Shown: positions 25,115 through 34,527 of the stretch, piece by piece | Layout: each line of letters begins with the position of its first letter | Numbering within the stretch: the stretch's first letter is position 1 | From: Escherichia phage vB_EcoM_ASO2A | Sequence record: MZ726793.1 | Direction: 5' to 3' (one strand) | DNA: 64,000 bases | The notes under the pieces: model-generated | What the model was told of the DNA's origin: nothing | Database searches by the model: none | Seen by the model: only the letters and a program-made list of their open reading frames with translations | Position numbers and translations under genes: made by a program

Positions 25115-25768
25115 CTATACCAGACTTTGAAGGTATTTGTCAAGTGCTTCTTGATCACCTTGACAAACATAGCAACGGAAGTCTTGAGCAGAAGGTTCTT
25201 TGTCCTCGTCCCAATCCCAATAGACAGTACCTTTATAGCGTGAGCCTGGGAACTCGAAGTATGCCACATGAGTAATATGGTGTGGGCCACCCCAAAACTC
25301 TGTAAAAGTAAATTGAGGATACGCTGCTTTAACTGTATTTTCAAACCAAGTTTTACGATCTAATGCTTCGTTTATAAAATAAGCATGGCGTTCCATTTCA
25401 TCCCACGTTTTCCAGACACTTCTCTCATCAGGAGAAAAGACAAGCCATTCTGGAAGGTAGAGAGTGTCATAGTAATCATCATATTCGATCTCGGAGACGC
25501 ACGAAGCTGACTCCTCCAGTTTTGAGTAATCAAAAGCAGAATATACCCACCAACCATCTTCCAGTAACGCTTTGATAGGGACGAAGCCTTTATCAGCATA
25601 TTGATCGAATTGTTTGACACGGTGGCTTGTGCAGTCTTCAAACTCACATTCTAAACGATATGCACCTTTTCGACGAGCCTCAAGACCGTGTGCACTGAAA
25701 ATAACAACACTTCCTTCACCATCATTACGATCTACTTGATAAGCAACTACTTGTTTTGAATTTGACAT
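25115..25768 (-). CDS. hypothetical protein
   Basis: 217-aa ORF. Confidence 0.5.
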   Translation of the reverse strand: MSNSKQVVAYQVDRNDGEGSVVIFSAHGLEARRKGAYRLECEFEDCTSHRVKQFDQYADKGFVPIKALLEDGWWVYSAFDYSKLEESASCVSEIEYDDYYDTLYLPEWLVFSPDERSVWKTWDEMERHAYFINEALDRKTWFENTVKAAYPQFTFTEFWGGPHHITHVAYFEFPGSRYKGTVYWDWDEDKEPSAQDFRCYVCQGDQEALDKYLQSLV

Positions 25769-26451
25769 TATTTCTCCTTATCTAGAAGATTGTTAGACAA
25801 AAACACTGCACGAGCAAAACCACGTGCGGTTAAGGATCTAAGTTGTTTTGTTTTTGCACTAGCTCCACCTAAGCTTTTCCAACCCCAGAAGCAGCCTATA
25901 TGATCTACTGGTTTCTTCACTGGTTGAACAAAACCATTGCCGTGCCAAATACAAGTTTTCTTTGTATACCCATCACGGGTAGGCATTTTAGGATGAAAGC
26001 TTCCTTCCTCTTCAAACAAATACCCACCATACTCATAAGGATCAAAGTAAAAATCGGGTTTACGCCATAAGGTTGAAAGTTTACCTACTGGGTTCTCAAT
26101 CATCCAAGGAACATTATATTTGTTACCCAAAGCTTCCACTACACGAATATTAGCTAAAGCTTCATCTAGTTCCTCTGTGCTACGTTCGTGTTTGCTACCA
26201 CTACCTGCTAACATAGTGCAAGGTGGAAATCCAAAAATAATATCGGGTTTAGGTATCCCATGATCTTCAGGGTTGAATGTAGAATCTATCCAGGCATTCA
26301 CATAGGTTATGTTTGGGTGCTCCATCCTAACCTCGTATTTACCGTGATCCCCTTCATCAGCGTTTACACAAAAACACTTGTGACCTGCTTCGGCATAACG
26401 TAACACCATAATCCCAGATCCGTCAAACATAGACAAAACTGTTTTACTCAT
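25768..26451 (-). CDS. C5-cytosine methyltransferase-like protein (compact)
   Basis: 228 aa from ATG 26451; motifs FDGSG, GFPPC and ENPVG in canonical order. Confidence 0.5.
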   Translation of the reverse strand: MSKTVLSMFDGSGIMVLRYAEAGHKCFCVNADEGDHGKYEVRMEHPNITYVNAWIDSTFNPEDHGIPKPDIIFGFPPCTMLAGSGSKHERSTEELDEALANIRVVEALGNKYNVPWMIENPVGKLSTLWRKPDFYFDPYEYGGYLFEEEGSFHPKMPTRDGYTKKTCIWHGNGFVQPVKKPVDHIGCFWGWKSLGGASAKTKQLRSLTARGFARAVFLSNNLLDKEK

Positions 26452-31582: not shown

Positions 31583-32173
31583 TCAAATTATTAACGAAAC
31601 CGCATGACTAAATCTTGGTTCAGATATAACCTCTGCTACAGTAACATATGTATCGTGCAGCCAAAAAGATTCTACTCTACAAACACAAATACCGTTGATA
31701 ATGAAATCTACACAGGCTTTATTATTTTCGCACACTTGTTGACTATAAACAACCCCTAAAGAGTCATAAAGTGATCTCACTGTTGCTACCATTTCATCTG
31801 TTTCGTCTTCCTGTGAAACAAAGAAAACGAATACAGACAAGTTATTAGCGAAAGTATTGCTATTCTCTACTTCAACCGACTTACAAGGTAAAAAGGAGTA
31901 ATATTTACCATTAGGTATCAATTTCGCCTCAACCTGGTTAAGTATGCTTTGAGATGGTTTTGTTACATAAAAAAGATTTTCTGTTGGGTTTTCAACATTA
32001 CTCCTTACTATGCAACGAGTGGGGTTCGAAGGATCAAAAACATGATCGAAATCGACACACACAGGTAAGTTAACAACTTTAAACTTTTTGCTAAGAATGC
32101 TTACTGCTGTAAAAATCAAACCAGCATTTATTTTGCCAGTGAAAGTTGAACGCATAACTACTCCTCGGATCAT
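31583..32173 (-). CDS. hypothetical protein
   Basis: 196-aa ORF; ATGA overlap with upstream gene. Confidence 0.5.
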   Translation of the reverse strand: MIRGVVMRSTFTGKINAGLIFTAVSILSKKFKVVNLPVCVDFDHVFDPSNPTRCIVRSNVENPTENLFYVTKPSQSILNQVEAKLIPNGKYYSFLPCKSVEVENSNTFANNLSVFVFFVSQEDETDEMVATVRSLYDSLGVVYSQQVCENNKACVDFIINGICVCRVESFWLHDTYVTVAEVISEPRFSHAVSLII

Positions 32174-32861: not shown

Positions 32862-33371
32862 TTAAACAAAATAAAATGGTTGAGAGAGGCCCAAACGATT
32901 CTTTGGGTCGTATACATACCAAGCGTATGCTGTCTTATCTGTTCCACCTGCAACAAACGAAGGCCGTTCTGAAAGGACTATAAGGTTTGTTGGTGGATTC
33001 TTTTGATGGAACTCTCGTCGTTTCTTTGACTCCAAGAAGCCCAACCGAAGAAGATAAATACAAACATCCGCCTCTTTTAAGCTCTTTTCCAAGAACTCCA
33101 TTGCTAACTTAAATGGAGGATTTGTGATTATAATATCGGGACGATTTTCCCATTTATGACTAAAATAATCTTTACCTTCTTCAAGTTCGCAATATTCTGA
33201 ACCTTCAGGAAAATGGCGATAAATCGCTTCAGCTTCACCTCTACAAGGTTCTGCAAAAACCCAACCTTCTTCCTTTAGATTTTTGAAATCTATAACACTA
33301 AACAAACTATTGATTGCTTTTTGCGGTGTCGGATAATAATCGCTCGTTGGGCGATCATAATCTAATGCCAT
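32862..33371 (-). CDS. N6-adenine DNA methyltransferase-like protein (small phage Dam type)
   Basis: 169 aa; DYYPTP near the N-terminus and IITNPPF catalytic motif. Confidence 0.5.
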   Translation of the reverse strand: MALDYDRPTSDYYPTPQKAINSLFSVIDFKNLKEEGWVFAEPCRGEAEAIYRHFPEGSEYCELEEGKDYFSHKWENRPDIIITNPPFKLAMEFLEKSLKEADVCIYLLRLGFLESKKRREFHQKNPPTNLIVLSERPSFVAGGTDKTAYAWYVYDPKNRLGLSQPFYFV

Positions 33372-33789
33372 CTAAAATCTCCTCTTTTGTAATATTATCC
33401 AACTCTTTAAAGGATGAAATCTCGTTTAATAATCCTATTTGATCAGCCTCTAGAGGATAAGTGTTTTTATCTGTTTTTCTAGACAGAATATCTTCAACAA
33501 ACTTATCAATAGCCAAAGAAGAATCATAAAATTTTAAAAGTTGGTAATCCATAGGAGATATTTTGTCATCTCTTAGAAATATTTCTAACATGTTTTCAGT
33601 AGTATCGTGGTTTAGTGTATGTTCACCAAAAATATTAACTTCGTAAACATCTTTGCCAAACCAACGTTTCTTCTTTTCAACAGTATAGGTTTTTGCCACC
33701 AGACCATCTAAACAGTTTCTTGCCCTCTTACATGTTTGACGGTAAGAGTGGATAGCGCCTTCAACAAACTTAGCAGGAACTTGTAACAT
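33355..33789 (-). CDS. hypothetical protein
   Basis: 144-aa ORF. Confidence 0.5.
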   Translation of the reverse strand: MLQVPAKFVEGAIHSYRQTCKRARNCLDGLVAKTYTVEKKKRWFGKDVYEVNIFGEHTLNHDTTENMLEIFLRDDKISPMDYQLLKFYDSSLAIDKFVEDILSRKTDKNTYPLEADQIGLLNEISSFKELDNITKEEILDGIRL

Positions 33790-33834
33790 TATTAATCTCC
33801 TATGTTTAAGAAATGCCCCCGAAGGGGCAGTTTG

Positions 33835-34527
33835 TTAAATAGCGGTTCCTTCGAAATCCGCCACATTTACGAGATTAATATTTTCAGATTTAGAAGTCAA
33901 GTTGTTTTCTGCAACAGATTTTTCTTCAGTATCCGCCTCGTTACCTGCCACGTTACGAGGTTCTTCTTCACCGTAGGGATTACCGAATTTCAAAAGATTG
34001 ATCAATTCTTCTTTGGAGAAGTTTTCTAAATCATCGTCTGTTAATTCAATAATCTCGTCTTGTTCTTCAATAAATGTTTCACCACCAGAAAAAGCATCTC
34101 GCTTTTTAGCTACTTCCATAGCTTGTTCTGGTGTTGCCCCTGCGTCAAGAGCAGCTAAAGCAAAGTCTGACCCACTTCCTACTGCATAATATTCTTCATC
34201 AATCGGATATGCACGTGTTGGGTTGTTACCTTCGTGCAAGAAAATACGTCCGTCTGGATGAACAACAAGTGCAATAAACTCTTCATCTTCTTTATCTGGA
34301 TCAGAGTGAATCATCAAACCAGGGACAGCATCACGTGCTGCTTCGCACTGTAGATTTTGTTCAAACCATTGAAAGAAAGAAAGCACGGAGGTCAGACGAC
34401 CAGCACCACCTACAAGGTAATCTCCAATTTTTCGGACCTTTTTGAAATTAATAGAATCTACACGTCCACCAAAAGTTACCTTACCGTCACTCAAAATCTT
34501 ATTTTTGGTTGCAATAATTGTCGTCAC
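33835..34527 (-). CDS. HslV-like (proteasome beta-type) threonine peptidase homolog
   Basis: 230 aa; N-terminal MTTI, LVGGAG and AVGSGSDFALAA resemble HslV; long acidic C-terminal extension. Confidence 0.45.
   Translation of the reverse strand: MTTIIATKNKILSDGKVTFGGRVDSINFKKVRKIGDYLVGGAGRLTSVLSFFQWFEQNLQCEAARDAVPGLMIHSDPDKEDEEFIALVVHPDGRIFLHEGNNPTRAYPIDEEYYAVGSGSDFALAALDAGATPEQAMEVAKKRDAFSGGETFIEEQDEIIELTDDDLENFSKEELINLLKFGNPYGEEEPRNVAGNEADTEEKSVAENNLTSKSENINLVNVADFEGTAI

Follow-up and report, generated by a model that had tools for sequence, protein, structure and literature searches.

What would a phage methyltransferase of only 169 amino acids (aa) modify, and how would it choose its substrate? 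This question is raised by a gene at 32862..33371 of a 64,000-nucleotide stretch of DNA from Escherichia phage vB_EcoM_ASO2A (record MZ726793.1; the whole stretch is called the window below). Our analysis points to a stand-alone catalytic core of the gamma lineage of methyltransferases (TaqI/HsdM), and with a probability of roughly 0.6 its substrate would be adenine in DNA at a defined site. That the protein acts as an S-adenosylmethionine (SAM)-dependent amino-methyltransferase at all is very likely, and any particular biological role has to be put forward with less confidence than the substrate. An earlier note on this DNA had claimed a 169-aa open reading frame (ORF) at 32862..33371 without giving its strand. 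Indeed, an ORF runs from ATG to stop over exactly this interval of the minus strand, and the plus-strand frame across it has many stops. The gene and its ribosome-binding signal are the following:

32862..33371, minus strand: coding sequence of 169 aa, minimal gamma-type N6-adenine-methyltransferase-like protein, identical to phAPEC8 gp177
33379..33384, minus strand: Shine-Dalgarno sequence GAGGAG, 7 nucleotides 5' of the ATG, read directly from the sequence

The gene is genuine and evolves under strong purifying selection. The ratio of nonsynonymous to synonymous substitution rates (dN/dS) against the phi92-type ortholog was about 0.06, an approximate value since dS is saturated, and the G+C content of the gene (38.4%) is that of the window (38.7%). 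The protein matched phrog_799 ("DNA methyltransferase", a name that reflects annotation and not tested function) with E=8.1e-59, aa 4-163 aligning to profile positions 206-373 of 458, and a word-indexed search found 247 homologs. This match, the numerous homologs, the dN/dS value, the Shine-Dalgarno sequence and the native G+C content place the gene beyond chance. The window region is 99-100% identical to phAPEC8-type Escherichia phages (Phapecoctavirus, Stephanstirmvirinae), and the protein is identical to phAPEC8 gp177 (YP_007348460.1 / AFU62665.1), annotated "DNA methyltransferase". Orthologs are phi92 gp056 and proteins of the BASEL phages EmilieFrey (Bas61) and PaulScherrer (Bas60), labelled "DNA methyltransferase" or "putative N6 adenine methyltransferase". 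The gene was thus already public under this general label, and its family is already a PHROG.

An AlphaFold model built from an alignment of 28 homologs (predicted local distance difference test score, pLDDT, 90; predicted template modelling score, pTM, 0.86) shows the whole chain as one compact alpha/beta domain, and the predicted fold is that of a minimal class I SAM-methyltransferase (Rossmann) core. Fold comparison of the model gave similar scores for enzymes with different substrates: PH1948 (13.3), lmo1582 (13.1), METTL5 (13.0), MmeI (13.0), M.TaqI (12.9), BseCI (12.1), ErmC' (11.9) and type I HsdM subunits (about 11-12). The modelled fold alone thus indicates an amino-methyltransferase core, whether of a DNA or of an RNA enzyme. 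Neither a single-sequence search nor a profile of the 28 sequences found a significant match among PDB sequences. A profile of 68 sequences, searched against all PDB sequences, matched M.TaqI (5e-7), the HsdM subunit of StySJI (4e-6), PacII (1e-5), ErmAM (1.7e-5) and BseCI (8e-4), whereas matches to further RNA enzymes were far weaker (METTL5, 0.3; RsmC, about 0.6-1; PH1948, 0.8). In the alignment with M.TaqI residues 22-111, ETP, LEPACAHG, DF and NPPY are in register with the family motifs X, I, III and IV. These matches and the in-register motifs place the family in the gamma-class lineage (TaqI, HsdM).

Since the fold would suit either substrate, methylation of RNA has to be considered: the enzyme would act on adenine N6 or guanine N2 of rRNA or tRNA, like METTL5/PH1948, Erm/KsgA, TrmN6 or RsmC, and would tune host or phage translation. 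We consider this unlikely, because DNA enzymes score 5-6 orders of magnitude better with the profile than METTL5, PH1948 and RsmC do. METTL5/PH1948 (COG2263), the 18S rRNA N6-methyladenine (m6A) enzymes, showed negligible profile similarity (E=0.3-0.8), so that the family does not group with them at the sequence level.

Motif conservation was read from the 28-homolog alignment and from the broader alignment and profile of 68 sequences. In the former, the conserved order is D-x-Y-x-T-P, E-P-C-R-G-x-G, E...G-x-D-Y and (I/V)-T-N-P-P-(F/Y), followed by a family-specific C-terminal half with LLRLNFLGSxKR, RPSF and TDxxEYAWFVWD. In the protein encoded in the window, these elements are located as follows:

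33324..33341, minus strand: motif X, DYYPTP (aa 11-16), aligned to ETP of M.TaqI; D11, Y13, T15 and P16 at least 90% conserved
33237..33251, minus strand: motif I, EPCRG (aa 41-45), predicted SAM-binding loop, aligned to LEPACAHG of M.TaqI; P42 invariant, G45 at least 90% conserved
33165..33188, minus strand: motif II/III region, ELEEGKDY (aa 62-69), its DY aligned to DF of M.TaqI; E62, G66, D68 and Y69 at least 90% conserved in the 28-homolog alignment
33111..33134, minus strand: motif IV, IIITNPPF (aa 80-87), predicted catalytic amino-methyltransferase motif; P85 and P86 invariant, T83 and N84 at least 90% conserved
32907..32966, minus strand: C-terminal signature RPSF ... TDxxxYAWxVxD (aa 136-155); R136, P137 and F139 invariant, D145, Y149 and W151 at least 90% conserved

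Both motifs quoted in the earlier note, DYYPTP and the one ending in NPPF, are thus present, and this ORF is the sole one with a [DNS]PP[YFWH] motif among the window ORFs of at least 90 aa. ELEEGKDY supplies an acidic residue after strand 2, and its D-Y pair lies 16 residues ahead of motif IV. Among 266 relatives, motif IV reads NPPF in 191, NPPY in 71 and NPPH in 1, and neither SPP nor DPP occurred. An NPP(F/Y) motif IV fits adenine-N6 chemistry, although the rule is not absolute. The likeness to N6-adenine-type methyltransferases that had been claimed from the letters is therefore supported by the class I fold, by M.TaqI (E=5e-7) with its aligned motifs and by NPP(F/Y) in 262 of the 266 relatives. 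R118 is likewise invariant in the 68-sequence alignment, and R118, R136, P137, F139, D145, Y149 and W151 are candidate substrate contacts. Variable stretches are confined to short loops (aa 21-40, 51-60, 71-78 and 156-169), and an insertion hot spot lies C-terminal to RPSF, where a Cys4 segment some 30 residues long is present in 30 of the 266 relatives (11%). This zinc-ribbon-like insertion (CxxC...CxC, between RPxF and TDxxEYAW; for example in P0038, P0050, P0072, P0080, P0110 and P0113) is possibly an add-on nucleic-acid-binding module.

From these positions, a working mechanism can be proposed. By homology to M.TaqI-type enzymes, SAM would be held by motif X (DYYPTP), motif I (EPCRG), E62 and D68-Y69; motif X is part of the cofactor pocket in TaqI-type enzymes and presumably has the same role here. 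A flipped-out adenine would be received by the N84-P-P-F87 loop, which would position the N6 amino group of the base to accept the methyl. The C-terminal residues R118, R136-P137-x-F139, D145, Y149 and W151 would, with the adjacent variable loops, stand in for a target recognition domain (TRD). The enzyme, probably expressed together with the upstream gene product gp176 from a long minus-strand block of early/middle genes, would methylate phage DNA and possibly host DNA at a short defined site other than those of the EcoRI, EcoRV, EcoP1I and EcoKI type. Evasion of some particular restriction system, or marking or regulation of phage DNA, are the candidate roles.

With gamma-class N6-adenine DNA methyltransferases (M.TaqI, HsdM, MmeI/Eco57I-type enzymes, PacII, BseCI), the protein shares the predicted fold, the order X-I-II-III-IV with no TRD between motifs I and IV, and NPP(Y/F). 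It differs in size, since M.TaqI has 421 aa, it has neither a TaqI_C-type recognition domain nor an HsdS-like partner, and its C-terminal signature (RLNFLGSxKR, RPSF, TDxxEYAWFVWD) is its own. The lineage is not that of the classical Dam enzymes: in alpha-class Dam a TRD lies between motifs I and IV and motif IV is DPPY, whereas here motif I precedes motif IV at a distance of only about 40 residues, and MethyltransfD12, the model of alpha-class GATC Dam, did not match in the Pfam scan. The likeness to small phage Dam-like enzymes that had been noted earlier holds in part. The PF05869 (Dam) proteins of about 170-200 aa are alike in size and in the layout x-TP ... (D/E)PC ... NPP(Y/F), and both groups are phage-borne orphans, but PF05869 did not match at E<=1 in the Pfam scan. 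The 68-sequence family alignment and a genuine PF05869 protein (L128:4331-4918; PF05869 E=9e-31) aligned weakly by hhalign (59%, E=9e-5) over 76 N-terminal columns only, and the C-terminal halves could not be aligned. Since both families occur in this one viral contig, they are not interchangeable.

Next to what do the homologs lie? The bacterial homologs are prophage genes. Among 112 neighbouring ORFs at 28 bacterial loci, P2-type replication protein A was found six times and C5 DNA methylases four times; other DNA-methyltransferase PHROGs, repressors, integrase and terminase recurred as well, and at single loci the gene adjoins MmeI/Eco57I-type enzymes, a 757-aa C5 methylase, GmrSD or a TOTE conflict system. 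Homologs on 37 viral contigs had among their neighbours GPA, DNA polymerase A, ThyX, Dam, C5 and N4/N6 methylases, Mom, QueC and a TET-associated glycosyltransferase (TAGT), and RNA-ligase-family genes lay near homologs at four loci. In K139-type Vibrio phages, the homolog ("orf8; N6-methyltransferase motif") is immediately upstream of rep. Systematic pairing with a restriction endonuclease was not seen in the neighbourhoods surveyed. Phage orphan DNA methyltransferases typically have such surroundings, and this context favours DNA as substrate without proving it. It also speaks against RNA methylation: the prophage copies sit in clusters of replication and DNA-methylase genes, whereas METTL5/PH1948 are cellular rRNA enzymes (METTL5 with TRMT112), and synteny with tRNA genes is confined to the Vequintavirinae and relatives. 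As for individual loci, the homolog of Formosa sp. A9 (L053, 6484-12037) adjoins a two-gene TOTE system (S1CSD-TOTE and TBP-TOTE, with UvrD and NERD domains). In Vequintavirinae and Stephanstirmvirinae, the position of the methyltransferase gene is constant: it lies downstream of PhoH and of an HslV/ClpP-like protease gene (33835-34527, minus strand, in the window), and in some genera of these groups it is also upstream of a CCA tRNA nucleotidyltransferase gene.

The second half of the question, how a substrate is chosen, is harder to answer. In the model, all 169 residues are taken up by the core, and neither TaqI_C nor another domain was detected with Pfam. The family shares this architecture. 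An exhaustive profile search found 13,223 cluster representatives (clusters at 50% identity) at E<=0.001 and 6,725 at E<=1e-10; among the best 150 listed, nearly all are 160-220 aa long and two are fusions. Pfam scans of the extra parts of the rare fused relatives P0214 and P0245 gave no confident partner domain, and precomputed Pfam domains were present in none of 120 homologs listed. The protein may represent a very large uncurated family (at least 13,000 clusters) whose members, bare-core methyltransferases of the gamma type, select their substrates with neither a recognition domain nor a partner, a proposal we make only tentatively, as its chances appear rather low. Recognition might then proceed via the invariant C-terminal signature and the variable loops, with the Cys4 insertion in 11%, or these cores may act on single-stranded or replicating DNA, on RNA or on a modified base and not on ordinary duplex sites. 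If true, this would be a new route of substrate selection for phage orphan methyltransferases.

A bare core could also be a catalytic subunit that needs a separate specificity factor from the phage (e.g. gp078, a second adenine-methyltransferase-like protein described below) or from the host, as HsdM needs HsdS and METTL5 needs TRMT112. HsdM subunits and METTL5 are indeed among the closest relatives, this phage group keeps both gp078 and gp177, and the start codon overlaps the adjoining upstream gene, which is preceded by a possible terminator:

33355..33789, minus strand: gp176, 144 aa, phrog_15078, adjoining upstream gene whose stop overlaps the methyltransferase start by 17 nucleotides
33814..33829, minus strand: terminator-like hairpin between the HslV-like gene and gp176, from a consensus scan only

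The 17-nucleotide overlap suggests that gp176 and gp177 are probably co-transcribed. As conserved partners, both gp176 and the downstream gp178 were rejected, since their homologs are confined to the phAPEC8 and phi92 lineages; they are not beside the gene in rV5-, CR9- and Avunavirus-type phages, a Listeria phage or 64 bacterial loci, and in the rV5-, CR9- and Avunavirus-type phages the methyltransferase gene directly follows a Clp/HslV-type protease gene. Neighbours in general vary widely between loci and the best-scoring relatives listed above are almost all stand-alone proteins, so that dependence on a separate factor seems improbable. The hairpin at 33814-33829, between the HslV-like peptidase gene and gp176, consists of GC-rich TGCCCCTTCGGGGGCA followed by a T-rich tail, and could mark the start of a small transcription unit holding the methyltransferase.

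What would a methyltransferase of this kind do for the phage? The earlier note saw two methyltransferases as layered protection against host restriction, a reading in conflict with published phenotypes. BASEL phages of the Bas60/Bas61 group were described as 'exceptionally susceptible' to restriction-modification (RM) systems; six systems were tested, EcoKI, EcoCFT_I, EcoRI, EcoRV, EcoCFT_II and EcoP1_I (PMC8594841). Both Bas60 and Bas61 carry orthologs of the gene and are without protection against all six. The known cognate modifications of these six systems are adenine methylations. The susceptibility thus speaks against an efficient, non-specific methylation of adenines in virion DNA and limits any anti-restriction role to specificities outside the six systems. 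The genome avoids restriction sites instead. In the window plus L067/L068, about 142 kb of phAPEC8-type genome, short palindromes were underrepresented (observed/expected ratios: GTAC, 0.34, z about -17; CCGG, 0.44; GGCC, 0.45; CTAG, 0.55), and the 6-mers CTGCAG (29 expected), CAGCTG (16 expected) and CCATGG (16 expected) were wholly absent; GATC, GAATTC, GATATC and AGACC occurred at expected frequencies. These statistics suggest that the phage depends on site avoidance more than on methylation. As a clue to specificity they were discarded, since no avoided site could be assigned to the enzyme.

The same data bear on the idea that the missing TRD simply means missing specificity, and that the protein is a non-specific or nearly non-specific DNA adenine methyltransferase like Hia5, Hin1523 or M.EcoGII. 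The absence of both TRD and partner would fit, as would the conservation of the whole core from member to member, a hint at one shared target instead of many specificities, and there is a phage-associated precedent: Hia5, Hin1523 and Nma1821 are prophage-associated orphan adenine methyltransferases with little or no sequence specificity (PMC3299994). However, heavy m6A should protect, and the ortholog-bearing BASEL phages are susceptible; the strong avoidance of palindromes likewise suggests that there is no broad protection. The Hia5-type enzymes are 281-aa, alpha-class relatives of Dam with DPPY and a divergent TRD region and not relatives of the family studied here; as TRD-less relatives Hia5 and Hin1523 were rejected, and the analogy is functional only (PMC3299994). 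We regard a non-specific enzyme as improbable.

Besides the lack of protection in Bas60 and Bas61, several points weigh against a gamma-type core acting on DNA adenine. Pfam gave no match above threshold: the best models were EcoRI_methylase (13.9 bits at a cut-off of 26.4) and MTS (11.5 bits), and none of the curated models N6_Mtase, Eco57I, EcoRI_methylase and MmeI_Mtase passed; NCBIfam gave no match either. At 169 aa, the chain is too short for a conventional TRD, which leaves its manner of reading a DNA sequence unexplained, and the protein is acidic (isoelectric point 5.5). We came across no published experiment that tested a family member or DNA as its substrate, and the 'N6 adenine methylases' of K139 and PV94 are annotations based on a motif. 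Finally, motif I is EPCRGxG in the family consensus and EPCRGEAEA in the lineage of the protein, where the second Gly is absent.

This last change could mean that the protein is catalytically dead or non-methylating, with a fold kept for binding SAM or nucleic acid; motif I of the lineage reads EPCRGEAEA or EPCKGAAAA, and strand 3 escaped detection in the AlphaFold model. This is the least probable explanation, and a very improbable one: NPP(F/Y) and the other motif residues are invariant or nearly so in thousands of relatives, motif I of M.TaqI (EPACAHG) is likewise not glycine-rich, and purifying selection on the gene is strong. A stand-alone core of the TaqI/HsdM lineage that methylates DNA adenine at a defined site is therefore the reading we prefer. 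It adds little about this phage itself, whose gene was already deposited and named and whose group is known as poorly protected from restriction. Its interest lies in a very abundant phage and prophage family of methyltransferase cores of about 170 residues that has no Pfam model or solved structure. Thousands of phage genes owe the label 'DNA methyltransferase' to a four-residue motif, and knowledge of the substrate would improve their annotation.

How many methyltransferases does the phage encode? RefSeq names four in phAPEC8 (gp194, gp177, gp117 and gp078). The phage genome has three methyltransferase-like genes (gp194, gp177 and gp078) and not two as first thought, the third lying beside DNA polymerase and outside the window. 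The two companions of gp177 are:

25768..26451, minus strand: gp194, 227 aa, C5-cytosine-methyltransferase-like; phrog_757, E=2e-84; motifs FDGSG, GFPPCT and IENP
L068:13872-14666 (NC_020079 106221-107015), minus strand, outside the window: gp078, 264 aa, adjoining DNA polymerase I

gp078 is annotated 'putative DNA N6-adenine methyltransferase' and has the motifs DQYYTNP, EPSAGEG and GNPPFG. It aligned by hhalign with the whole core of gp177 (95%, E=2e-8, 140 columns) and then continues for about 97 C-terminal residues. It also touches phrog_799 and matches full-length type II methyltransferase models (E=2e-36), a further point against an RNA substrate for its paralog; no Pfam family matched and a single-sequence PDB search returned nothing. 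EPSAGEG, GNPPFG, the extra residues and the full-length type II matches are all absent from gp177, which on sequence comparison appears to be a distant bare-core paralog of this more conventional enzyme. Evidence for adenine methylation from ClaI digests of phage CB7 was not used, since it probably concerns a gp078-type gene and is confounded by host Dam.

The C5-type companion reported earlier at 25768..26451 stood as an ORF, on the minus strand and with the motifs FDGSG, GFPPCT and IENP; its class is less firmly placed. M.HaeIII was the only PDB sequence match (E=0.35, motifs in register), and the Pfam model DNA_methylase (PF00145) remained below threshold (E=0.18, 11.6 bits at a cut-off of 22). 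Some homologs are called 'DNA cytosine methyltransferase' by NCBI. gp194 is thus plausibly of the C5 type. With 227 aa, and about 215-245 aa in its 870 homologs, it is about 100 residues below typical C5 DNA methyltransferases, and in this short family, too, a conventional recognition domain may therefore be absent. In a related paper on Certrevirus, DNMT2, a tRNA enzyme, is reported as the best HHpred match.

The fourth RefSeq entry, gp117 (L067:24138-24617, plus strand; NC_020079 66487-66966; outside the window), was ruled out as a 'DNA methyltransferase', since it matches the XkdF-type prohead serine protease PF14550 (E=1e-11). It sits between portal and head genes, and its label is probably a misannotation inherited from phrog_1530. 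Another label in this genome concerns two genes of about 190 aa named 'histidyl tRNA synthetase' (phrog_4806), at 31583-32173 of the window (minus strand) and at NC_020079 128761-129318. The former had no Pfam match in the scan. Both are far below the size of a real histidyl tRNA synthetase, which makes this annotation doubtful.

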